Assembly: GCA_964530595.1 (NCBI GenBank)
Contig: CAZGZL010000001.1
Location: 1 to 60,593 of the forward strand
Length of the DNA: 60,593 bases
DNA from: an uncultured Prevotellaceae bacterium
GTDB lineage: Bacteria > Bacteroidota > Bacteroidia > Bacteroidales > UBA3663
Reading direction: 5' to 3'
The notes under the pieces: model-generated
Databases searched by the model: none
What the model was told of the DNA's origin: nothing
Seen by the model: the letters and a program-made list of their open reading frames with translations, nothing else
Shown: positions 8,130-19,813 of the stretch, piece by piece
Layout: every line of letters starts with the position of its first letter
Numbering within the stretch: the stretch's first letter is position 1
Translations under genes and position numbers: made by a program

Positions 8130-9443
8130 TCAGCGGTTCTGCTCAGAGGAATGTTCACAGAGCGTGCGCAGGGAGAAGCTGAGGCGCGTAGCCGAGGAAA
8201 GCTGCACAAGGATCAGCAGCGCAAAAGGAACAGAGGGGAGAAAAAGCCGCCCATATTCGCCGTAAGAACCGATGGTCATCACTGCAATGTTGCCACAGCA
8301 GGCGAGGAGCAACGTCCAGTTAAGCCAGTCGATGGAATGCTTCATTAAGCCTATGTAGAGCAGCAAAAGGGCGTAAACGAACAGGACAAAGTAGATGACA
8401 TACAGTTTAATCGGAATATACCCCACGTAGAAAATGAGCGAGGGCAGTTCCGCCGAATTCTCCAGCATATTGCATTTGGCAGAGCTCAACACCCGTCGGC
8501 AGGCGTACAGATACCAGCGCATACCTAACTGCGCCTTTGCTTCGGAGATGTAGTTGTATTGATCCAAAGGTGGTAGGTGGAGGAAATATTCCAAATAGGC
8601 TTCTTGATCCTCCTTGAGCCGATCGGAAGTCTCTAATATCTTTTGCGACGTCGGACTTTCGCCATGAATTTGGTCAAAAAGATCCTCTATCCGGAGGTTA
8701 TTGGCATCATTGAGCATCGAGACGGTAGAGATGAGGCGCACCCCTGTCTCCTTTCGGATGGCTTGTGTGTAGCCGAACAAAGCGAGCAAGACCGCCACAA
8801 GTGAGATGCTCAACAGGTGGAGCGGCTTTTTCTTGTGCTGAAACTGCCAGAGGATGCAAACGAGCAACACTACAACAAATAGATATAAGAACGCCGGGCG
8901 TAGAAAGGTCAATAGGAGTAACCAAAAGGTAACGCCGAACAGATAGCGTTTGCGTGCAGTGGCATACAGTCGGACGAGTGCGGAGAGCAGGAAGACGACG
9001 CCGCTCGTCGCCAAACTCTCGGTCAGCAGGCACAGCGCGTAGGCTGCAATGCCGGGCTCAAGGGAGTAGAACGCGGTTGCGAGCCAGACGATCCAACGCC
9101 GTTTCGAGAGGTGGGACGCCAAAAAATGAAAGCTCGGAATCGAGGCGACGAAGATTAGAATCTGAAAGAACGCGGCAGCTTCGTCTGCGTACGTCCCGAA
9201 GAGTCGTCCCATCATCCCCAAGAAGAAGGGGTAGATCGGCGTTCTGAAGATGTCCCAATGCCCGGTTTGTAGGGTGTGCCAAGCCTCTTTGTAGCTCTCT
9301 GTGTCTACGCAAGTGGTTGCCCCGAAGCATAGCAATTCACCTACCAAGATAAGAAACGATAGGGCGAGAAGATACGCCATAGGGCGCTTCTGGATGCCTC
9401 GAAATAGGATGCTGAGTGCTGTTCGGATTTTGGATTGCAGCAT
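8130..9443 (-). CDS. polytopic membrane protein of unknown function (possibly GT-C-like glycosyltransferase or polymerase)
   Basis: 437-aa ORF with about 7 predicted TM helices, a ~110-aa soluble insert and about 3 more TM helices. An acidic first-loop motif CVDTESY is present. The function is inferred only from topology and neighbourhood. Confidence 0.55.
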   Translation of the reverse strand: MLQSKIRTALSILFRGIQKRPMAYLLALSFLILVGELLCFGATTCVDTESYKEAWHTLQTGHWDIFRTPIYPFFLGMMGRLFGTYADEAAAFFQILIFVASIPSFHFLASHLSKRRWIVWLATAFYSLEPGIAAYALCLLTESLATSGVVFLLSALVRLYATARKRYLFGVTFWLLLLTFLRPAFLYLFVVVLLVCILWQFQHKKKPLHLLSISLVAVLLALFGYTQAIRKETGVRLISTVSMLNDANNLRIEDLFDQIHGESPTSQKILETSDRLKEDQEAYLEYFLHLPPLDQYNYISEAKAQLGMRWYLYACRRVLSSAKCNMLENSAELPSLIFYVGYIPIKLYVIYFVLFVYALLLLYIGLMKHSIDWLNWTLLLACCGNIAVMTIGSYGEYGRLFLPSVPFALLILVQLSSATRLSFSLRTLCEHSSEQNR

Positions 9444-9497
9444 GAAGATTTTGTACCGTGAATGATGTAAATATCAAGTCGTCAAAGGGTGGCGCGC

Positions 9498-11849
9498 TCA
9501 CCGCACCACCAAGAACTTAGAGACAACGCCCGATTTGCCGTTAGCGTCCACGCCATACACCAAATAGACGCCGGAGCGCACCCGTTTGCCGTCGCGGTTT
9601 TGCAGGTTCCATGTGATGGCGCCTCCTGACGAGGTGGCTGCATAGAGCACATTATTATTGATGTCGGTGATGCGGACTTGCGAGCCGTCCATCAAGCCGG
9701 AGACACACAGGTCGCCGGTATATTCCGGGCGAACCGGATTGGGATAGCAATAGACTTCGGAGAAATCGTTGCGCCCGGTGACGGCATCGGAGCGATAAAT
9801 AAAGATGCCGCCGTCCACCGAGATGAATAATCGCCCAGTGGCTTCGTCCATCGTCAGCGAGAGAATGTCGTCCGAGAGGAGCGGACTGTTCTCTGTCGTG
9901 AAATGTTCGATAGTGGTGAGTCCGTCTGCACTAATCAGATAGAGACCGCTGCCGTAAGTGCCGATCCATTTGCGGTTGGCTGCGTCTACGACCATACAGC
10001 GTGTATCTACGTCGGCTAACAAATAATCGGCGAGATTCGTGCCGTCGTTACGTGGAATTTTGATGCGGCGCACCACTCCCTTGTTGCGGAACGTCTCGAT
10101 CGGGCTGTCAGAGACAAAGGGACCGATTTCGGTCAAGATCCAGACGGCGCCGTTTTTATCTTCCACCAAACCGTATAGCGAAGGAGTGTTCGAGTTTCCA
10201 TCCTGATCGATTAGGGCGTCAAAGTGTGCTGCGTCGTCATCGTTCAAGTTTTCGAGGGTTCCCCCGGTGTAGTACATCGCCCATTCACCGGGGGTCTTTG
10301 TCAACCAAATAAACTTATAGGGATCGTATTGGCTGACGAGCAAACTACTCACCACTGAGGCATCGTCGAAGCCTGCAATGGGATAAGACATCCATTGTCC
10401 GTTTGCTAACAGCGCCTTGAGCGTTGCAGAGCTCTCGTTGTAGTTGCCCATCCAGAGATTTCCGTCGGCATCGTACTTCAGACCGGAGACGCGAGCACGC
10501 CAATAGACGTCCAGCGGGCTGTTGTTCTCGTCGTAGTGTTCCACGATGCTATCACCTTCGATGATATAGAGACCATTGAGCGTAGAACCTACGGCATAAC
10601 GTCCCGGTGTCCGCGGGTCGGCTGCCAAGGAGGTGAGGTCTTGGAAGTTGTATTTCACGTCCGGTGCTCCTTTGAGCTTAGAGATGGGGAGGTGCGTCCA
10701 ACCCTCCTCTTCGTCGAACGTCACGAGCATACCGTTGAGGCGATTTACCTCATTCCAAAGCAGCTTCTGAGGGGCGGCAACCAACGAACCCAACACTCCG
10801 TCTGTATAGGTGAGGCATTGCAGCGCCGAATACATCGGCGCCTGAATGTTTACAGGTTCTTGCTCCTCCTCGAACGAAAACGAGTAGCCGGCTTTGTAAT
10901 CGCTCAAGTGTAGCTGCAATACACCGTCTGTAGGGTGCAAAGCGTAGCACATAGTGTCGTTGATGGCAAGATAGTCCACACAAGCGGCGTAATAAGCGGT
11001 ACAGCACCATGCCACCTCGTTTGTCGACGGAACGCCGATATTGACGCAGCCGCTACTCGTTAAGAGCTTGTCGCCCATCCATGCAGCGTTGACCAAATAG
11101 GCCTGCGTCAATCTTTGCTGAAAACTGCCGTCGGGCTGTAGGTAGGCATTGAAGGCGTCCAAAAAACCGACATAGCATTGCGGCTCTCCGTTGTCTTCGT
11201 AAATCAGCATATTGGTGATACGCTTGTCGTATAGTTGTTGCCACGAATCGCTGCGCGAAGCATCCAATTCTGCCGGACAGCGGTAGAAACCGGATTCCGT
11301 ACCGCGGTAAAGAGCGCCGCCAAAAGAGAAAGCGAACCGGCAAGGCTCATCCATCATGTAAGAATCCTCAAAATAGCCATTCACCAAGTTGACAATCGTG
11401 AATCCGAAGTCGGCAGAGATGTATAACTTGTCGTTACAGATTTGTGCGTTCCGAATCGTCTTGCTCGGCAGAGATTTGTTTTTCAGATCGGGCAAATTCA
11501 ACTGGCTACCGTCTTCGTAGAGCAAATCTATATCTCCGTCTGTATAGACAACCGCGAGAATGGAGTGGGTCTCATTGGCAACGATTTTAGCCACGGAGCT
11601 GCCGCTCAATCCATCCAAACGGGTCAATGTTTGGGTCGAATTTTCTGTTGGGTTGTAGCAAAACAATCCGCCGTCTTGAGACGTGATGTATATCCGATCG
11701 CCAAGCCGATCCATCTGTGCATATTGCGACACGGCGGGGTAAACTGTCCATTCGGAAGCGGCGCACGGAAGCGCGGCGGTCATACCACCCAAGAGGAGAA
11801 GCAAACCGCCCCATAAATTACGTTGTGTATCAAGGAAACTTTTCATCAT
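9498..11849 (-). CDS. porZ: PorZ-like T9SS protein (two beta-propeller regions of two-component-regulator propeller repeats plus T9SS C-terminal domain)
   Basis: 783 aa with a signal peptide. It has Reg_prop-like repeats (GLYIIEGDSIVEHYDENNSPL; GSGLYLISADGLTTIEHFTTENSPLLSDDILSL) and a C-terminal sorting domain (...VRITDINNNVLY...GVYLVYGVDANGKSGVVSKFLVVR). Size and architecture match what I recall of P. gingivalis PorZ (~776 aa). The symbol is tentative. Confidence 0.7.
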   Translation of the reverse strand: MMKSFLDTQRNLWGGLLLLLGGMTAALPCAASEWTVYPAVSQYAQMDRLGDRIYITSQDGGLFCYNPTENSTQTLTRLDGLSGSSVAKIVANETHSILAVVYTDGDIDLLYEDGSQLNLPDLKNKSLPSKTIRNAQICNDKLYISADFGFTIVNLVNGYFEDSYMMDEPCRFAFSFGGALYRGTESGFYRCPAELDASRSDSWQQLYDKRITNMLIYEDNGEPQCYVGFLDAFNAYLQPDGSFQQRLTQAYLVNAAWMGDKLLTSSGCVNIGVPSTNEVAWCCTAYYAACVDYLAINDTMCYALHPTDGVLQLHLSDYKAGYSFSFEEEQEPVNIQAPMYSALQCLTYTDGVLGSLVAAPQKLLWNEVNRLNGMLVTFDEEEGWTHLPISKLKGAPDVKYNFQDLTSLAADPRTPGRYAVGSTLNGLYIIEGDSIVEHYDENNSPLDVYWRARVSGLKYDADGNLWMGNYNESSATLKALLANGQWMSYPIAGFDDASVVSSLLVSQYDPYKFIWLTKTPGEWAMYYTGGTLENLNDDDAAHFDALIDQDGNSNTPSLYGLVEDKNGAVWILTEIGPFVSDSPIETFRNKGVVRRIKIPRNDGTNLADYLLADVDTRCMVVDAANRKWIGTYGSGLYLISADGLTTIEHFTTENSPLLSDDILSLTMDEATGRLFISVDGGIFIYRSDAVTGRNDFSEVYCYPNPVRPEYTGDLCVSGLMDGSQVRITDINNNVLYAATSSGGAITWNLQNRDGKRVRSGVYLVYGVDANGKSGVVSKFLVVR

Positions 11850-11929
11850 GGAATGAATAACTTTGGAGAACTTTTTAATGTTCCCGAACTATTTTATAAA
11901 CGGCAGAAAGTCTGTTTTATTGTCAATCC

Positions 11930-13267
11930 TCAGCGGATCGTCCAGCGGAAACGGTAACGCAAGCGGCAGAATGCGTAGTTGAAGAACAGCTCCACCGCGT
12001 GGAACAGTAGCAGTGCGATGCCCAAGCCCTCCAAACCACCTAAGTGCCAGCCGGCGACGAGGATTCCGCTCATCAAAATGCCTAACGAAATCTCGACAAA
12101 CATATAGTCGCGCCATTTGCCCAACGCCAACGGCATGTATGCCAACGGCAAAGACAATGCTTTGAACGGAAGATACCAGCACGCCCATTCCGCCATCGGG
12201 AGCATGTCGTCGAACTTGTGGGAGAAAAGCAATGGGATTAAGTAGGGCATCAGCGCCGCAAAGAGGAGGGTGAGCGGCAGGACGATGGCAAAAGTCACAG
12301 CCATCTGTCGGCTGACCATCCGATTGCGGAGTAGCGCCACTTGATTCACTCCAGAAAGGCGGGGATAGAAGTCATTCCCTATGGCGGTGAAGATCGAGCA
12401 AGGGTAAATGATGCTGAGCTGATAGCCGGCGCGATAAAGTCCCACGACAGTCATCGTCGCTGTGGCGGCAATAACCGTCTGTACCAAGAGCTCCACACCG
12501 GAGGCAAGCACCCCCGAAACGATGGTGGAAAGCCCCATCAACAGCACCGGACGCATTTTGAGCCACAGTGTGCGTAGCCCGATGCGTAGCCGCGGATCGG
12601 GCGAGTAGAAGGCTTGAAACAACGCGCGGTCGAAAGGCACTGTACGATGGCTGTAGAAACAGATCAGCAGCAGTTCTGCTGTGGCGCTGAATGCTAAGGC
12701 GGGGAGCACGCCGGCGACACCCCACCAATAATAGCAAGGGACAACGAGTACCACCGAACAAACCGAAATGATGATCGAAGCGGTGGTTAGTGCGCTAATC
12801 TTGCGATAGGCTTTCAGAATCGCCATCTCGCAGCTGTAAGAATGTCTGAGACAAATGATCAACAAGATCACTAAAATACTTTGTACCGTCAGCTCTTCCA
12901 ACGGGTGCACGAAGCGGATAAAGAGCAGGGTAAGTAGGATTGCAATGCCGGCAACGCACCAAGTCCAGAGACAAGTGATGCGCAGGTAGCGACTTTCGGC
13001 GGCGGCGCTTGCTGTATCGCCTTGCTCGATGGCGACCGAGATATTGCGCACGCCGCTTGTCCCTAAGCCGAAACCGGTCAGAGCTACGTAGAAATTGACG
13101 ATCGTATTGTATAGCCCCGATAAGCCCAATCCCACGGGACCGATCAGCAGGGCGGCTGCCTTAGAGCGAATCAGCGCCGCGAGGATGCCGAATGCTTGCG
13201 ATCCGCCGAAGATACTTATGTTGCGGGCGATGTTTCGAAACGAAGAGTCGGAATTTGTAGGTGTCAT
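11930..13267 (-). CDS. Wzx-type oligosaccharide/O-antigen flippase (MOP superfamily)
   Basis: 445-aa protein with about 12 TM helices. The N-terminus FRNIARNISIFGGSQAFGILAALIRSKAAALLIGPVGLGLSGLY is typical of polysaccharide biosynthesis (Wzx) proteins. Its ATG overlaps the upstream stop (ATGA, 13264-13267). Confidence 0.85.
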   Translation of the reverse strand: MTPTNSDSSFRNIARNISIFGGSQAFGILAALIRSKAAALLIGPVGLGLSGLYNTIVNFYVALTGFGLGTSGVRNISVAIEQGDTASAAAESRYLRITCLWTWCVAGIAILLTLLFIRFVHPLEELTVQSILVILLIICLRHSYSCEMAILKAYRKISALTTASIIISVCSVVLVVPCYYWWGVAGVLPALAFSATAELLLICFYSHRTVPFDRALFQAFYSPDPRLRIGLRTLWLKMRPVLLMGLSTIVSGVLASGVELLVQTVIAATATMTVVGLYRAGYQLSIIYPCSIFTAIGNDFYPRLSGVNQVALLRNRMVSRQMAVTFAIVLPLTLLFAALMPYLIPLLFSHKFDDMLPMAEWACWYLPFKALSLPLAYMPLALGKWRDYMFVEISLGILMSGILVAGWHLGGLEGLGIALLLFHAVELFFNYAFCRLRYRFRWTIR

Positions 13268-14271
13268 AACGTCATAGAGTTACCTTGTGACAAGTCGAGG
13301 CGATAGCAACGATAAGCTACGCCGCGTCCGCCGAAACCCTCTTTTTGAGCGACGAGTGTGGCGTTGAGGTACCTTCCGGCTTGCTCGTTTGAGGTTCCGA
13401 AGTCGAAGTATCGGATGTCGGGTTGCGCGCGGTAGTGTTCGATCAGAGAGAGATAGAGCAAGTCCATCACCCCGTCGGCTTTGCCCAATGCAGAGGCGTG
13501 AGGATACTGAATGTGCACCACTTGCGCCGTCTCGAAATAGAGGATTCCACCGGTCAATATGCGCCCTTGCTCTGTGGACTTATAGGCGCACGTGCAACGG
13601 ATCTGTTGCGGGAAGCGATCGCGCAGTAACTGTATTTCTGCCAACGAGTGTACCGGACAGGCGCTGTAACGCTGTTGCAGATTCTCTGTGACAATTTGCC
13701 AGAACTCTGTCAGCTCCGACACCTCCTCCAATACATAGCCGGCTTGCGACGCCCGTTTGAAGCCGCGTCGCCGCCGCGCCTCCACTTTGGGGGCGCAACA
13801 TTCCGGTGCACGTAAATCAAGTGTCGTTGCGATGTTGCAGACCTCGATTGTCGCGCCGAGCCGCCACAGTGCGTACTCATCCTCTTGCGCCGGGATGCGC
13901 TGATAGATGGTTGGAATAGGTTTATAATAAAGAACTTGAAATCCTGTTTGCCGCAAATACTCCACCAAGCGTTGCATCAGCTCCATCACCTCCACAATGC
14001 CACTGCGAGGCTGCAACAGCCAGCCTCCGTAGGTCAGTCCGCGGTGAGAATAGTAGACCTTCCCCTCTGACGCCTCCACCGCCTCGCATCCGGGCAAGAG
14101 CGCCGTGAGCGCACCTTGTTCGTCGAACGCCATTAGAGAATGATCTGCAAAACGGTCGGCGTGATAGTCCATGTAGGGACGCTGAAGCAGGAAGGTCGCG
14201 TTGACGGCGGTAGCGACAAAGGCGTCCCAAGTGGGAGCGTCCGCCGCTGTATATCGGCGCAGGGAGAGCAT
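13264..14271 (-). CDS. GNAT / FemAB-like acyltransferase
   Basis: 335-aa soluble protein with a two-lobed GNAT-like layout and no TM segment. It sits between sugar-nucleotide isomerase and flippase genes. The family call is from overall resemblance, not a sharp motif. Confidence 0.65.
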   Translation of the reverse strand: MLSLRRYTAADAPTWDAFVATAVNATFLLQRPYMDYHADRFADHSLMAFDEQGALTALLPGCEAVEASEGKVYYSHRGLTYGGWLLQPRSGIVEVMELMQRLVEYLRQTGFQVLYYKPIPTIYQRIPAQEDEYALWRLGATIEVCNIATTLDLRAPECCAPKVEARRRRGFKRASQAGYVLEEVSELTEFWQIVTENLQQRYSACPVHSLAEIQLLRDRFPQQIRCTCAYKSTEQGRILTGGILYFETAQVVHIQYPHASALGKADGVMDLLYLSLIEHYRAQPDIRYFDFGTSNEQAGRYLNATLVAQKEGFGGRGVAYRCYRLDLSQGNSMTL

Positions 14272-14295
14272 ACGGCAGTGTTTTAGCGTAAAAGG

Positions 14296-15252
14296 TTATT
14301 GTTGTGGGGCGGATAGCGAGTTGCGGAATTCGGCTAATTGCTGATAGTCGCAAATATAATCTTTCGGATCATAACTTTCGGAGGTCAAGACAAGCGCCAC
14401 CGCTGCCGACGAGAAATCGTGCAGACGACACCAGATGCCCGGCGGAATCAGTAACCCCATGAAGGGGCGGTCTAAACGCACTGAGCGGTGTTCGTGCAGA
14501 TCGTCCAACTCGACCGTGAAGCTACTGCTGGCTGCCACTATAAATTGCCACGCCTGTTTGTGGGCGTGCTGTCCGCGATCGGTATCTGAGGGGATATCGT
14601 AGAGATAGAATACGCGGCGCAGAGCGAACGGTAGTATTTCGGGCGTGCCCTCTTCGATCGCCGTCAGATAGCCGCGACGCCGCTCTGTGAAGGCGGGTAG
14701 ACGGAACATGCGACAATCTGCCAACGTATAGGCTCCGGAGTGCTTTGGGAGCACTACTTCGGGCGCTGACGGAACCACTTCGTGGAATATCTGACACGGA
14801 TCGGCGGCGTTTTGTGCCACCTCTGCGCAGAATGTCTCGAAGTCCCAGAGATAATCCCCCTCGTCGTAGTGGGTAGATGAGAGCACTAAACCCAACGAAT
14901 TGGTCGAGAAGTTATCCAACGTGCGCCACGTCATTGGCGGCACATAGACGCCCTTATACGAGCGGCACAGATGAATCCTTCGCTCCTCCTTGCCGTCGTG
15001 TAACACCACATCAAAACTGCCGCTCAGTGCGACGATAAACTCCTCTTGGTGGCGAAAGGCGTGACTGCCGCGTAGCTCGCCGCCGGGGACGTCGTAAATC
15101 CAATAGGCGCGACGGATGCGGAAGGGAATATGATTCTCTCCCTCAATGAACGACAGATTCCCTCGTTCGTCCTCCACCTTCGGAAGGTTGATGAGGCGGA
15201 TCTCCCGTTCAGATTTTGGGGCAGATAGCTCAGATTGATTCATGGATGTCAT
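14296..15252 (-). CDS. tandem (two-domain) FdtA/WxcM-like sugar 3,4-ketoisomerase cupin protein
   Basis: There are two ~140-aa copies of the WxcM/FdtA cupin. Copy 1 reads LPKVEDERGNLSFIE...RGSHAFRHQEEFIVALSGSF. Copy 2 reads LPAFTERRRGYLTAIE...RGQHAHKQAWQFIVAASSSF. The canonical HAH is present only in copy 2. Confidence 0.85.
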   Translation of the reverse strand: MTSMNQSELSAPKSEREIRLINLPKVEDERGNLSFIEGENHIPFRIRRAYWIYDVPGGELRGSHAFRHQEEFIVALSGSFDVVLHDGKEERRIHLCRSYKGVYVPPMTWRTLDNFSTNSLGLVLSSTHYDEGDYLWDFETFCAEVAQNAADPCQIFHEVVPSAPEVVLPKHSGAYTLADCRMFRLPAFTERRRGYLTAIEEGTPEILPFALRRVFYLYDIPSDTDRGQHAHKQAWQFIVAASSSFTVELDDLHEHRSVRLDRPFMGLLIPPGIWCRLHDFSSAAVALVLTSESYDPKDYICDYQQLAEFRNSLSAPQQ

Positions 15253-15309: not shown

Positions 15310-16650
15310 TCAGCGTGCCAACCAGCGTTCGGGATCTTCCTTGTGGTTGCTGTTCCAGATCTGGAAATCCATACGAGTCTGGTTGCCGTTCTCCGGATCG
15401 GAATAGATCAAGCCGATGCGATCGCGCATTTTGACGTGTTGCCCTTGCTTCACATAGACTTTCGACAGATTATTGTAGACTGAGAAGTAAGTTCCGTGGC
15501 GCACGATCACCGAGATGTTGTAGCCGGGCAACTGCATAATTGTGTTGACTTCGCCGTCGAAGATGGCGCAAGCCTCTGCACCCGCCTTGGTTTGCAGGAT
15601 AATGCCGTTATTTACCGTCTGGACGAACTGTGAATGCTGTTGCGTACCGAAGTGTCCCACTACTGCATAGCTACTATTCACCGGATAGGGCAATCGTCCT
15701 CGGTTTTGGGCGAACGATCCGGTCAAGCGTGTCGAGGCGTCGTCCGTCGGTGTTACCACCTTGGCGGCTGTTGTGGTCGTTCCCGTGCCCCCTTTGGCGC
15801 CTTGTTTAGCTCCGTTCTTTTGTCCGGACTGTTTGGCGGCTTTTTGCGCGGCGAGTTCCGCCTTGCGGCGAGCCTCCTCCGCGGCGCGGCGTGTTTCCTC
15901 CTCGATCTTCTGTTGGATCATCCGATCCAACGCTTGAGCCTGCTTTCGCTGCTTATCCAAATCGCTTTGCAGCTGTTTCTTCTGCTTATCCAGCTCTGCC
16001 ACGAGTTGCTTTTGCTGTTGTCTTTTGGCTTGCAGCGTAGCTTGTTCCTTGCGCTGTTCCTCCAACAACTGTTGCCGTTCCTCTTGGCGGCGAGCCAATT
16101 CCTCGCGCGCCTGTATTGTGCGTGCTTTCTCTCGGCTCAGCTCCTCTGCCTGCTTCTTGCGCCACTCACTGTATTGATGCAAGTAGCGCATACGGCGCAT
16201 ACATTCCGACAGATCTTGTGCCGAGAAGACAAAGATTACCTCGTCATTCCCTTTGCGCCAGCGGTACAAGTGCCGCATCGCGGCGGCATAACGTTCCTGC
16301 TTGTCGCGAATGTTGCTTTGCAGTGTCGCAATGGTCTGTTTCAGCACCGCTTGCTCACGGTTCATCTCCTCCAACTCGCGGTTCATTACTGCCAACAGTC
16401 CTTGCCGAGTCTTGATCTCGGAGTTCAGCAATTCCAGTTCATTCAGCTGTTGCTTGGCGCTCTTGGTGGTCTTTTTGAGCATTGCCGACGTTTCGTCGAT
16501 CTGCTTCAACGCCGCCTTACGCTGACTCTCCAACTGCGCACGACTCTTGGACTTCTGACCATAGCCGGCTGTCGGGGCGCATAGGAGTATGCAGCAGCAC
16601 ATGAGCAGAAGGCATCGTATTTTCGTGGTAAATTTGTGCAAATCGTTCAT
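15310..16650 (-). CDS. M23-family peptidoglycan DD-metalloendopeptidase / EnvC-like murein hydrolase activator with long coiled coil
   Basis: A signal peptide is followed by a ~250-aa Q/K/E/A/R-rich coiled coil and a C-terminal LytM/M23 fold (GIILQTKAGAEACAIFDGEV...VIVRHGTYFSVYNNL...GQHVKMRDRIGLI). Confidence 0.85.
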   Translation of the reverse strand: MNDLHKFTTKIRCLLLMCCCILLCAPTAGYGQKSKSRAQLESQRKAALKQIDETSAMLKKTTKSAKQQLNELELLNSEIKTRQGLLAVMNRELEEMNREQAVLKQTIATLQSNIRDKQERYAAAMRHLYRWRKGNDEVIFVFSAQDLSECMRRMRYLHQYSEWRKKQAEELSREKARTIQAREELARRQEERQQLLEEQRKEQATLQAKRQQQKQLVAELDKQKKQLQSDLDKQRKQAQALDRMIQQKIEEETRRAAEEARRKAELAAQKAAKQSGQKNGAKQGAKGGTGTTTTAAKVVTPTDDASTRLTGSFAQNRGRLPYPVNSSYAVVGHFGTQQHSQFVQTVNNGIILQTKAGAEACAIFDGEVNTIMQLPGYNISVIVRHGTYFSVYNNLSKVYVKQGQHVKMRDRIGLIYSDPENGNQTRMDFQIWNSNHKEDPERWLAR

Positions 16651-16656
16651 TCCCTC

Positions 16657-17505
16657 TTATTCTTTGAGCTTCTTGATCGTCTCTATCAGCTGTGGCATTG
16701 TCACCGTCTGATAGTTGCGCGACGGTGTGAAATCCGTCCACGGAGCGGCGGGTACCGTGGGAGTGCCCAAGGTCAACGAGCCTTGAAAGCTCTTTCCGCC
16801 GGTCTGTACGTTCAATAACTCGCGTCCGGGATAGAGCGCGTCGTTCAAGCTCTGATGATCCTCGTAACTCCAACGCACCACCACACTACTGTCTGCCGTC
16901 ACCACTTCGGTGGCAGCCAAACAGTTCTCGGCGTTCAGCGTGTAAGAGAGTGTATATCGTCCGGCGGAAGTATATTGCCCCACTAATTGCTCACCCTCCT
17001 CATGCCATGCAAAGCGTTTGAAGTCCGATCGCCCTGCAGCGCCTCTGCCGGGCACATACATTCTGCCGGTGAAGAGACACTGTACCGCTTCGAGGTCCAC
17101 TTCGCCGCCGATGCGGTCGCTCAGCTCTTGCATTGAGTAGGAGACGTAGCATTTGTCGAACTTGTCTACGATGCGGAGCGAATCACTGTTTGCCTCAACG
17201 CGAGCCACCTCGATGCCCACCAACGGTGCGTTCACCGAGAGCAGTAGCCGTTTCTTGTTGGTCATCTTCAGCGCGCCCTTCAAGCTCTTGTTGCCCATAC
17301 CCATCGTGATCTTGGATTGGAAACTTTCGGGGGCAAAGGCATGGCTGATTGCAGCCTCGTAACGTTCCGATTCAGCTTTGAGCACGACGCGTGAGCCGGT
17401 GGCTTGACGTGTCGTGTGGCAACTCGTCAGCATCATGCCACAGCACAACACGCCGCCGAGCGTCTTTAGATTCAATGCTTTCATATTGATTTTGCTTATA
17501 TACAT
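16657..17505 (-). CDS. DUF4292-like outer-membrane lipoprotein (LolB-like fold family)
   Basis: Lipobox MLTSC. The block KSLKGALKMTNKKRLLLSVNAPLVGIEVARVEANSDSLRIVDKFDKCY resembles DUF4292 proteins, and the conserved Bacteroidota neighbourhood TPR-DUF4292-M23 is present. An alternative ATG at 17484 is equally possible. Confidence 0.65.
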   Translation of the reverse strand: MYISKINMKALNLKTLGGVLCCGMMLTSCHTTRQATGSRVVLKAESERYEAAISHAFAPESFQSKITMGMGNKSLKGALKMTNKKRLLLSVNAPLVGIEVARVEANSDSLRIVDKFDKCYVSYSMQELSDRIGGEVDLEAVQCLFTGRMYVPGRGAAGRSDFKRFAWHEEGEQLVGQYTSAGRYTLSYTLNAENCLAATEVVTADSSVVVRWSYEDHQSLNDALYPGRELLNVQTGGKSFQGSLTLGTPTVPAAPWTDFTPSRNYQTVTMPQLIETIKKLKE

Positions 17506-17520
17506 ATTAAATAGTTTGGA

Positions 17521-19398
17521 TTATTTAGCCCACGGCAGAGGCTCCTCGATATACTTTCCGGTGCGAATCTTCTCTGGCAGTGTTTTAGAGTCACAGTCGG
17601 GCAATGCCGCTGCCCGCTTCCAATATTCCATAGCCTCCTCTGTCTCGCCGCTGCCATACAGAATGTCCCCGTAGTGTTCCAACAGCGTCGCCGAGGGTTG
17701 CTCACCCTCGCACGTCAGGGCGCGCTTCTGATAGAACTTAGCCAACGAGAAATTGCCCAAGCGGAAATAGACCCAAGCGTAAGTATCTAAATAGGTAGCG
17801 ACGTCCGGCTGCTTGCGTATCACGATGCTCATCATGCGTTCGGCTTGATCCAAACGTATGCCTTCGAGCGCCAAGAAGTAGCTGTAATTGTTCAGTACAT
17901 TGATGTTCTCGCCGTTGTATTTCAACGCCAAGTCGTAGGCGGCGTAAGCGCTATCCATCTGTCCGACGTTCTGGTAGATATCACCCATATACCCGTACAC
18001 CTGCGAGCGGAGTAAAATCTGTTCTGCAGGCAATACATTCAATGCCTGCCGATAGCTCTCTAATGCCTCGTCGTTGCGTTGCTCCTCCGCGAACGCAGAG
18101 GCGCGAACCAGATACGCTGTGACGAAGTTCGGAATATAAGTCAACGCCTGTGCCGTGGTCGTAAGCACCGCTTCGCTGCCTCGCTTTTGATAGGTCAAGT
18201 AGATGTAGGGAACCCAATAATCCTCTTCTGCCGGGCGTAGATCTACCGCGTCTGCGTAACGTGCCAACGCTAAACTGTCCTGACCGATGGCCTCCAAATA
18301 TTTGGCTTGTAGCACATAAGGCTCCGGTTCGGTGGGATGGGTATTGATCACCGTTGCAAAAAGATCGTCCACGAGGGGCGTGGATTGCAGTATGCTGTCT
18401 TGAGCTCGTTGTTGCAAGTAATTGCGCAGATAGTCGGTCAGGATCTCCAACTTTTCATTCAACTCCAAGTTGGGATGTGCCAGGGCGTTACGCATGGTCG
18501 TCTCGGCGGCTATCGTGTCGCCCGTCACCGTGTAGTAGTGGGTCATCGAGACCCACAGACGAGGGTGATCGGCGTCGAGCGAACGAGCTGCATCGTAATT
18601 GCTCAGCGCCTCTTCCGTGCGTCCCGCCTTCAGCAGCATATCGCCGTTGATGATGCGGTAGATGGCGTTGTAAGGGTATCGTGCAATCAGCTTAGAGAGT
18701 GACGCAAAAGCGCTGTCCGGCTCCTGTAGGTGCTGATAGAGGTAAAACTTCTGCATCGAGAGCTTGGGATCCACCCCTTCGATCTCCTCGATGTGTTCCA
18801 TCATGCGCACACAGTCGCGCACGCTGTCTATCGAGAGGTAGAGCTCGCACAACTCTTCGCAGATCTCCGTGTTGTCCGGATGATGCTTCAGCAATCGTTC
18901 GTAGCTACGGATCGCCTCTGTGGGACGCTTCAACTGTTGTAGCAATGATGCCTCCATCAGTCCGTACCACAACTCTGTGGAGTCGTGCCGTACGGCACCT
19001 TGTGCCCAGTAGAGCGCCGGTTCGAGTTGCCCCGACTCGGCGTATTGCTCTGCCATGAAGTAGCGAGCGGGAGCAAACGTGCTGTCTATCTCTAACACGT
19101 GAAACATCAAGTCGAATGTGCGGTGTGGTGAGCCATCGGCGAGTTGATTCTCCAATGCAGCAAAGTAGAAGTAGTCGCGTCGAGCCTCCTCGCGCTTCTG
19201 CTCGTAGCGTAACGAGTCGGAGAGCTCCGTCGTCGCAAGGCTCTTTTTGTGTCCCTTCTTGCCCCAAGCTGTCGTAGGCAATAACACCCCTAAGAGCAGT
19301 GCTACGACGAATAGTTTGCTATGTCTCAGATCTGAAAAAGTCACGATGAATAGAATTAAGAGAAAATATACGCACTCATTGGCGACCGCTATGTCCAT
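17521..19398 (-). CDS. tetratricopeptide-repeat protein (secreted or periplasmic)
   Basis: Many TPR units throughout (e.g. [49 protein letters not shown]). The start is uncertain: the track ORF starts at 19425 and an ATG lies at 19398, and both overlap dut. A GTG at 19344 would give a clean signal peptide ([28 protein letters not shown]) and no overlap. Confidence 0.8.
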
Positions 19399-19813
19399 AA
19401 CCACCTGTGCCGCGTTCCGTCTCACTCAGCTCTTCTACGGGCTGCCACTCCACTTGCTCGCAACGTGCCACCACCATCTGCGCGATGCGTTCGCCCGGCT
19501 CGATTGTCGTGGGGGTGTCGGAAAGGTTGATCAGCAACACGGAGAGCTCGCCGCGGTAGTCTGCGTCGATTGTGCCCGGCGAATTGAGCACCGTCAAGCC
19601 TCGTTTCAGCGCCAAACCGCTGCGTGGACGAATCTGTGCCTCGAAGCCTGCCGGAAGTTCAATGAACAGACCGGTAGGGATCAACTTGCGTTGCAAGGGC
19701 AGCAATTCGACGGGTTGAGACAAGAAAGCTCGTAAATCCAGACCGGCAGACAGCGGGGTGGCATAGGTAGGCAACGGATTGCCTGAACGATTGATGATCT
19801 TGATAGATAACAT
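19376..19813 (-). CDS. dut: dUTP diphosphatase
   Basis: 145 aa with classic dUTPase motifs: [31 protein letters not shown] and a C-terminal [10 protein letters not shown]. Confidence 0.95.

Follow-up and report, generated by a model that had tools for sequence, protein, structure and literature searches.

An FdtA–Fem-like–Wzx gene cassette linked to porZ as a candidate source of an N-aminoacyl-deoxyhexose linking sugar for type IX secretion

The cargo proteins of type IX secretion systems (T9SS), which include major virulence proteases of oral pathogens and many enzymes of gut and rumen bacteria, are held on the cell surface via a linking sugar, and the locus described here raises the question of whether some Bacteroidales make this sugar by a route other than that of Porphyromonas gingivalis. 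The locus lies in a window of 60,593 nucleotides (nt), which is the whole stretch of DNA analyzed, on contig CAZGZL010000001.1 of an uncultured Prevotellaceae bacterium (assembly GCA_964530595.1, 82% complete; here G000). An earlier reading of the letters of this DNA (the sequence-only reading) had noted five closely packed genes, encoding a tandem FdtA-type ketoisomerase, a FemAB-like acyltransferase, a Wzx flippase, a PorZ-like protein, and a polytopic membrane protein, and had proposed that they form a dedicated module for a linker possibly different from that of P. gingivalis, containing an N-acylated 3-amino-3,6-dideoxyhexose. With modest confidence, we favor the reading that the cassette makes a deoxythymidine diphosphate (dTDP)-linked 3-(N-aminoacyl)amino-3,6-dideoxyhexose, which serves as the T9SS linking sugar and to which Wzx and porZ are coupled, by a route non-homologous to the Wbp/Vim pathway.

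The PorZ-like protein was compared with the PorZ family model and with the P. gingivalis protein. The 783-amino-acid (aa) protein scored 505.4 bits against the PorZ equivalog NF052228 (cutoff 260), with the match covering positions 15–757 of the 757 in the model, and it aligned to P. gingivalis PorZ (PDB 5M11, E = 2.9e-55) over residues 70–160 and 372–783, that is, to its last residue. The N-terminal propeller model PF21544 (PorZ_N_b_propeller) was also matched, with 85 bits. It was the sole above-cutoff match to NF052228 in G000, while the PorU sortase (NF033707, 975 bits) is encoded on contig C63 of the same genome. Judging from these matches, the 783-aa protein is a true PorZ, and it is single copy in the assembled genome; hence the earlier PorZ-like call held, as no other porZ above the cutoff was found in the assembled 82%. 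In P. gingivalis, PorZ reportedly binds lipopolysaccharide (LPS) or the linker glycan and delivers anionic LPS (A-LPS) to the PorU sortase; the NCBIfam model is named after this function. PorZ relatives were located by a search with the family model and by an alignment-based scan. A second, divergent paralogue of PorZ (25–29% identity) accompanies the main porZ at a distance of 2–5 kb in many members of the window's genus (L044, L047, L048, L050, L051, L075), and two adjoining full-length PorZ genes are present in G025 (C20:212649-217296). Short PorZ variants of ∼650–680 aa without approximately model positions 160/215–300, a part of the first propeller, were observed in Prevotella pallens (G042:C1:285474-287498), in Prevotella aurantiaca, and in many members of the genus (G010, G018, G002, G013, G005, G017, G007, G019).

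The first gene of the string encodes two PF05523 domains (161 and 135 bits), and the protein matched FdtA (PDB 2PA7) with E = 1.4e-26, as well as QdtA. The catalytic histidine pair of FdtA (His49/His51) is intact in the C-terminal half, which reads RGQHAHK, while the N-terminal half, which reads RGSHAFR, has lost the second histidine. The same arrangement, H-A-F in the N-terminal half and H-A-H in the C-terminal half, was found in all three tandem FdtA proteins, from the window and from two related genomes (G001 and G015), and the H-A-H pair is present in 41 of 48 single-domain relatives. These residues suggest a fused pseudo-dimer, each chain having a single canonical active site.

To describe the acyltransferase encoded by the next gene, its sequence matches and its predicted fold were compared with those of known enzymes. 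The protein passed the cutoff of the PF13480 (Acetyltransf_6) model with 25.6 bits (cutoff 22), but it did not reach the cutoffs of PF02388 (FemAB) or of the NCBIfam Fem models, with TIGR03019 scoring 47 bits against a cutoff of 260. By these matches it is a member of the Fem superfamily that falls in no curated Fem family. The AlphaFold2 (AF2) model of the protein had a pLDDT of 95, and the top 11 Foldseek matches to it were all aminoacyl-tRNA-dependent enzymes, with TM scores of 0.66–0.77. The best folds were those of Sba18/Sbb17, which were solved with the amino-sugar acceptor streptothrisamine, and those of FemA, FemX, and aminoacyl-phosphatidylglycerol synthases, while tandem GNAT enzymes using acetyl-CoA gave poorer matches (TM 0.35–0.5). 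A profile of the family matched only Sbb17/Sba18 among PDB sequences (9WQW, E = 1.4e-5). The C-terminal K-x-G-F-G-G motif of the family, QKEGFGG in the window protein, aligns with FKLGFGG of Sbb17, and its lysine (K310) does not vary among 40 sequences; at each invariant position of this 40-sequence alignment, the window protein has the family residue. The FemAB-like call is thus supported by a fold closest to the Fem, aminoacyl-tRNA-dependent class, and the activity predicted for the protein is aminoacyl-tRNA-dependent N-aminoacyl transfer to a dTDP-3-amino-3,6-dideoxyhexose. The family is very large, with more than 4300 clusters at 90% identity, labeled "GNAT family N-acetyltransferase" or "hypothetical protein," and with more than 587 loci in species-representative genomes, chiefly of Prevotella/Prevotellaceae and Muribaculaceae.

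The genes around the Fem-like gene were counted in the best 80 of these more than 587 loci. FdtA was encoded immediately upstream in 54/80 loci, and a DegT aminotransferase immediately downstream on the same strand in 34/80, while an RmlB-type dehydratase was present upstream in 17/80 and Wzx downstream in 19/80. The core unit is, hence, FdtA followed by the Fem-like gene. In a pathway to 3-amino-3,6-dideoxyhexose that is canonical in its other steps, the Fem-like enzyme therefore takes the place of the left-handed-helix acetyltransferase (FdtC/QdtC) usually present. In G000, genes for RmlB, RmlD, and a nucleotidyltransferase, which can supply the FdtA substrate, are present on contig C5. A region of this contig (G000:C5:21000-40999, L275) is the ordinary polysaccharide locus of the genome, with RmlB, RmlD, Wzx, GT2 and GT4 glycosyltransferases, a protein resembling YfhO, and a nucleotidyltransferase alongside a GHMP kinase. 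Bacteroidales-type Fem-like cassettes were also seen on contigs labeled Faecalibacterium prausnitzii, Firmicutes CAG:103, Thermotogae, Senegalimassilia, and Rhizobium (L179, L187, L196, L208, L234), some with Bacteroidales-like OmpA or M23 neighbors; these five contigs are probably mis-binned.

The product expected from such a pathway was compared with the published linking sugars. These carry an N-seryl group in P. gingivalis and an N-glycyl group in Tannerella forsythia (Veith et al. 2020, PMC7468200), and it is VimA that decides which amino acid, serine or glycine, joins the linking sugar (PMC7468200). In Prevotella intermedia the linking sugar is an N-alanyl-deoxyhexose (dHex) joined to an N-acetylhexosamine (HexNAc), N-alanyl-dHex-HexNAc (Ye et al. 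2025, PMC11969387); its describers called the biosynthesis of alanyl-dHex unknown and reported that this species is without WbpB, WbpD, VimA, and VimE (PMC11969387). HexNAc, alanine, and amino-dideoxyhexose residues have a summed mass of 419.19 Da, which agrees with the reported delta mass of 419.195–419.198. The genomic comparison rests on relatives of P. intermedia, P. pallens ATCC 700821 and P. aurantiaca JCM 15754, rather than on a P. intermedia genome; a 43-aa peptide tag from the 2025 paper, searched as an alignment, matched only P. aurantiaca and P. pallens. Each of these two strains encodes a single, full-length Fem-like protein, the gene of which is preceded by FdtA directly upstream, and no VimA-like gene was found in either. 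The P. pallens genes are arranged in a compact operon between housekeeping genes, consisting of RmlB (dTDP-glucose 4,6-dehydratase; TIGR01181, 440 bits, cutoff 365), FdtA, the Fem-like protein, and DegT, and in the genus of the two species the Fem-like gene is present in 76 of 91 sampled genomes. The proposal of a linker built on an N-acylated 3-amino-3,6-dideoxyhexose thereby gains independent support from the N-alanyl-dHex of P. intermedia and from the operon of its relatives that have no VimA-like gene. More tentatively, RmlB–FdtA–Fem-like–FdtB could be the missing route to the Prevotella-type N-aminoacyl-deoxyhexose linker, a second and non-homologous solution, with the Fem-like family performing tRNA-dependent aminoacylation of a nucleotide sugar. 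To our knowledge, such a reaction has not been described for cell-surface glycans. The literature search returned nothing linking FdtA-type or Fem-like genes to T9SS, and no paper pairing "type IX secretion" with "FdtA" or "Prevotella" with "WxcM"; a 2026 paper on the P. gingivalis linker does not cover flippases or biosynthesis in Prevotella.

The relation of the Fem-like protein to VimA was analyzed using orthologues of the latter, recognized by their position directly downstream of recA, an arrangement known from P. gingivalis. In size and in their Acetyltransf_6 architecture, these recA-adjacent orthologues are like the window protein. A VimA profile found no match in G000, the Fem-like profile found no VimA at E ≤ 1e-5, and the hhalign comparison of the Fem-like alignment with one VimA sequence was not significant (probability 0.2%). 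The possibility that the Fem-like protein is the VimA orthologue was therefore dropped; the common ground is limited to the Pfam family PF13480 and the architecture. The distribution of the two genes was then compared in 201 genomes evenly sampled over the order. VimA-like genes were present in 5 and absent in 18 of the 23 genomes with a Fem-like gene, while they were present in 134 and absent in 44 of the 178 genomes without one. This is an anti-correlation (odds ratio 0.09, Fisher p = 8e-7), although the VimA-like calls come from a narrow profile and the association ignores phylogeny. Among the 183 PorZ-positive genomes, 132 had only a VimA-like gene, 16 only a Fem-like gene, and 5 had both. 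A different Fem/Acetyltransf_6 protein (333 aa; PF02388, 55 bits) is encoded between GT4 and DegT-like genes in Porphyromonadaceae sp. NP-X (L259, G231:C1:26144-29527), and this locus possibly represents another, third kind of cassette for aminoacyl-amino-sugars.

The five open reading frames (ORFs) of the window were found at the coordinates that the sequence-only reading had assigned to them (Table 1), all on the minus strand, and the assignments of the tandem FdtA, Fem-like, and Wzx genes were confirmed by Pfam and NCBIfam. In gene order they are separated by 24 nt, a 4-nt overlap of the Fem-like stop with the Wzx start, 80 nt, and 54 nt, consistent with the small gaps described earlier. 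The Wzx protein scored above the cutoffs of PF01943 (38 bits) and PF13440 (28 bits). The genome has at least four MOP genes, this one and others located on contigs C51, C32, and C5, and this number is compatible with a dedicated role for the Wzx of the window.

Table 1. Coordinates and family assignments of the five-gene string in the window
Gene product	Position	Strand	Length and assignment
Tandem FdtA	14296-15252	-	318 aa; PF05523 x2, 292 bits
Fem-like (double-GNAT) acyltransferase	13264-14271	-	335 aa; PF13480, AF2 model
Wzx/MOP flippase	11930-13267	-	445 aa; PF01943, PF13440
PorZ	9498-11849	-	783 aa; NF052228, PDB 5M11
GT-C-fold polytopic membrane protein	8130-9443	-	437 aa; Foldseek

A gene of an EnvC-like M23 protein is located 57 nt upstream of the string. 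M23–DUF4292–TPR genes lie upstream of the Fem-like gene, as in the window, in 11–13 of the 80 Fem-centered loci. The TPR–DUF4292–M23 string (window 15310-19813) was seen directly before the Fem-like gene, with or without FdtA, in several Bacteroidales families, including a T9SS-negative genus (L164, L168, L169, L171, L184, L197, L202, L208, L219, L233, L239, L276, L277), and this appears to be the site that the cassette occupied ancestrally.

To evaluate the linkage of porZ to the cassette, 39 genomes of the window's genus, the 80 Fem-centered loci, and 80 PorZ-centered loci were compared. In the genus, four genomes have the Fem-like gene and porZ on the same contig, in three layouts. The window and G001 (75% complete) share the order FdtA2–Fem–Wzx–PorZ, G015 has FdtA2–Fem–DegT–Wzx–LbH acyltransferase–GT4–PorZ–putative GT, and G016 has PorZ–radical SAM–GT4–FdtA–Fem–Wzx. 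Outside the genus, three more cases were found: in a Paraprevotella metagenome-assembled genome (MAG; L085) porZ is convergent with Fem–DegT with overlapping stop codons, and in two Prevotella MAGs (L170, L182) it is located at the edge of the same Wzx/glycosyltransferase locus. The linkage thus occurs in at least three genera and at least five arrangements. As two single-copy genes would fall within 10 kb of each other in only ∼0.7% of 3-Mb genomes, this recurrence shows that the linkage is beyond chance, yet it is found in a minority of genomes and in a few lineages only. Hence, the porZ linkage on which the dedicated-module proposal rested recurs in several arrangements, while strict dedication was not supported, as the linkage was seen in 4 of the 39 genomes and three times elsewhere.

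Gene identities, fold, synteny, and phyletic patterns are what the comparisons above establish; the substrate, aminoacyl-tRNA as the donor, the amino acid transferred, and a role of the product as the T9SS linking sugar are inferred from them and would fit together as follows. In the window genome porZ would be co-transcribed with the nucleotide-sugar and flippase genes. RmlA/RmlB, encoded on contig C5, would provide dTDP-4-keto-6-deoxyglucose, which the tandem FdtA would isomerize to the 3-keto sugar. A DegT/FdtB-type aminotransferase, the gene of which lies between the Fem-like and Wzx genes in G015 and would have been deleted in the window genome and G001, would convert the latter into dTDP-3-amino-3,6-dideoxyhexose, and the Fem-like enzyme would move an amino acid from aminoacyl-tRNA onto its 3-amino group. 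The N-aminoacyl sugar would then enter an undecaprenyl-linked glycan, be flipped by the adjacent Wzx, and be joined to LPS. Finally, PorZ could present the glycolipid to PorU, and the sortase could couple the cargo's new C terminus to the alpha-amine that is free on the aminoacyl group, in parallel to seryl/glycyl-SAGA in P. gingivalis and T. forsythia and to N-alanyl-dHex in P. intermedia.

Several observations weigh against this reading. The linkage is rare, because the Fem-like gene is present in 38 of the 39 genomes of the genus but on the same contig as porZ in only the four described above, PorZ is within 10 kb in 2 of the 80 Fem-centered loci, and the Fem-like gene is found in 1 of the 80 PorZ-centered loci. 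In genus g18 (G043 and G184, 99–100% complete), the cassette is located in the M23-adjacent site of genomes without PorZ and PorU, and therefore the sugar cannot serve T9SS alone, contrary to the strict dedication assumed in the sequence-only reading. The Fem-like gene is not enriched with PorZ (21/183 PorZ-positive versus 2/18 PorZ-negative genomes), although this plain co-occurrence is uninformative because PorZ is present in 183/201 genomes. Neither a VimA-like nor a Fem-like gene was found in 30 of the 183 PorZ-positive genomes. The same direction is indicated by the limits given above for the VimA-like association and for the use of relatives of P. intermedia, by the missing aminotransferase gene discussed below, and by the absence of the 437-aa protein next to porZ in relatives.

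The main rival explanation is that the genes form an ordinary cassette for LPS, O-antigen, or another surface glycan, in which FdtA and the Fem-like enzyme, with FdtB, would provide N-acylated Fuc3N/Qui3N, and which was brought near porZ by lineage-specific rearrangement, with no specific functional tie and with the linking sugar made otherwise. Such an explanation, which we consider unlikely though deserving of serious weight, agrees with the rarity of the linkage, with the lack of enrichment in PorZ-positive genomes, and with the cassette of the PorZ- and PorU-free genus, which occupies the same M23-adjacent site that seems ancestral and is common to several families. It accounts less well for a porZ linkage recurring in different genera and arrangements, for the anti-correlation with VimA-like genes, and for the fit of the predicted product to the P. 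intermedia linker chemistry together with the presence of the cassette in the closest available relatives of that species, in one of which, P. pallens, it is a stand-alone operon outside any O-antigen locus. The two explanations also overlap, since the linking sugar of P. gingivalis is itself part of LPS (PMC13086638).

The absence of a DegT gene, which the sequence-only reading had remarked on, was confirmed for the window and extends to the assembled part of G000 and to that of G001. It could mean that the pathway is dead here, with the aminotransferase deleted between the Fem-like and Wzx genes and the gene order left as a relic. The gene is directly after the Fem-like gene in G163, and in G015 it occupies the very junction at which the window has the 4-nt overlap. 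However, FdtA, the Fem-like protein, and Wzx are encoded by intact ORFs, the Fem-like protein retains all family-invariant residues, and the window and G001 share the DegT-less layout with proteins 60–70% identical, which argues for long maintenance under selection and, therefore, for an aminotransferase encoded elsewhere rather than for decay; given the completeness of the two assemblies, the gene may also be in unassembled DNA. We thus regard decay as improbable. Still less probable, to the point of being only a slight chance, is that the Fem-like enzyme acts on peptidoglycan precursors in the manner of FemX/FemA and is tied to the adjacent EnvC-like M23 gene. The resemblance of its fold to FemA/FemX and the M23 gene directly upstream in some loci, including those of families without T9SS, would be in line with this role, but the coupling to FdtA, DegT, and RmlB is far tighter and wider, the P. 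pallens operon has no M23 gene nearby, and the best fold and sequence matches are to amino-sugar-acylating enzymes.

The last gene of the string encodes a 437-aa protein of a rare family, for which seven homologues were found, one of them named ArnT-like by JGI. Its AF2 model was of moderate quality (pLDDT 72), and Foldseek matched it to STT3, AglB, PglB, ArnT, PMT, and DPY19 with probability 1.0 and TM scores of ∼0.5. A D-[TS]-x-x-Y motif in loop 1, the first periplasmic loop, was present in all seven homologues covering the region. According to this model the protein has a GT-C fold, and the earlier description of it as GT-C-like with an acidic first loop is borne out by both the fold and the motif. 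A homologue beside porZ was found in none of the relatives examined, so that its status as a conserved PorZ partner was rejected, and its earlier inclusion in the PorZ unit did not stand. In locus L268 (1027-4325) the homologue directly follows a GtrA gene and a gene of a 523-aa FAD amine-oxidase-like protein. The GT-C gene thus probably belongs with a GtrA/FAD-oxidoreductase module, outside the PorZ/linking-sugar unit. The combination of GtrA, FAD oxidoreductase, and GT-C protein suggests a three-part module for modification and transfer of polyprenyl-phosphate sugars.

The favored assignment offers, from the operon of a gut-type Bacteroidales bacterium, a candidate route to the N-alanyl-deoxyhexose of P. 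intermedia, for which four candidate genes can be named. On this assignment, the P. intermedia sugar is predicted to carry its amine at C3, and the predicted donor is an aminoacyl-tRNA. A very large Bacteroidales family which has generic annotation only thereby receives a probable function, and, if confirmed, the assignment would extend tRNA-dependent aminoacylation to nucleotide-sugar metabolism.

The proposed pathway can be compared with three known systems. In the Wbp/Vim pathway of P. gingivalis and T. forsythia, WbpA/B/D/E(PorR)/S, VimE, VimA, VimF, and the Wzx-like PorS feed the PorU–PorV–PorQ–PorZ complex. The system proposed here would likewise produce an amino sugar with an N-linked amino acid, the free amine of which is the sortase acceptor. 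VimA is an Acetyltransf_6/Fem-like protein similar in size and architecture to the window protein, DegT aminotransferase and Wzx-like genes are clustered in both systems (porR–porS), and PorZ and PorU are present. On the other hand, the predicted backbone is a dTDP-6-deoxyhexose made via RmlB and FdtA instead of UDP-2,3-diamino-glucuronic acid, G000 has no detected VimA-like gene, with the Fem-like protein too distant from VimA for sequence profiles, and porZ is inside the operon in the window. The FdtA–FdtB–FdtC and QdtA–QdtB–QdtC pathways, which lead to dTDP-Fuc3NAc and dTDP-Qui3NAc for S-layer glycans of Aneurinibacillus and Thermoanaerobacterium and for O-antigens, have in common with the cassette the RmlB product as a substrate, the histidine pair of the FdtA family (in the C-terminal half), and, in relatives, DegT. 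The differences are that the left-handed beta-helix acetyltransferase FdtC/QdtC is swapped for a double-GNAT Fem-like protein, that FdtA is a fused tandem with one half degenerate, and that the cassette is linked to Wzx and porZ. Finally, the streptothricin-type enzymes Orf11/Sba18/Sbb17 (PDB 9WQW-9WQY) are similar to the Fem-like protein in fold, in the K-x-G-F-G-G motif, and, as predicted here, in having the amine of an amino sugar as the acceptor, while the identity to them is ∼16%, and they come from actinomycete antibiotic pathways, in which the acceptor is a free pseudo-disaccharide and not a nucleotide sugar.

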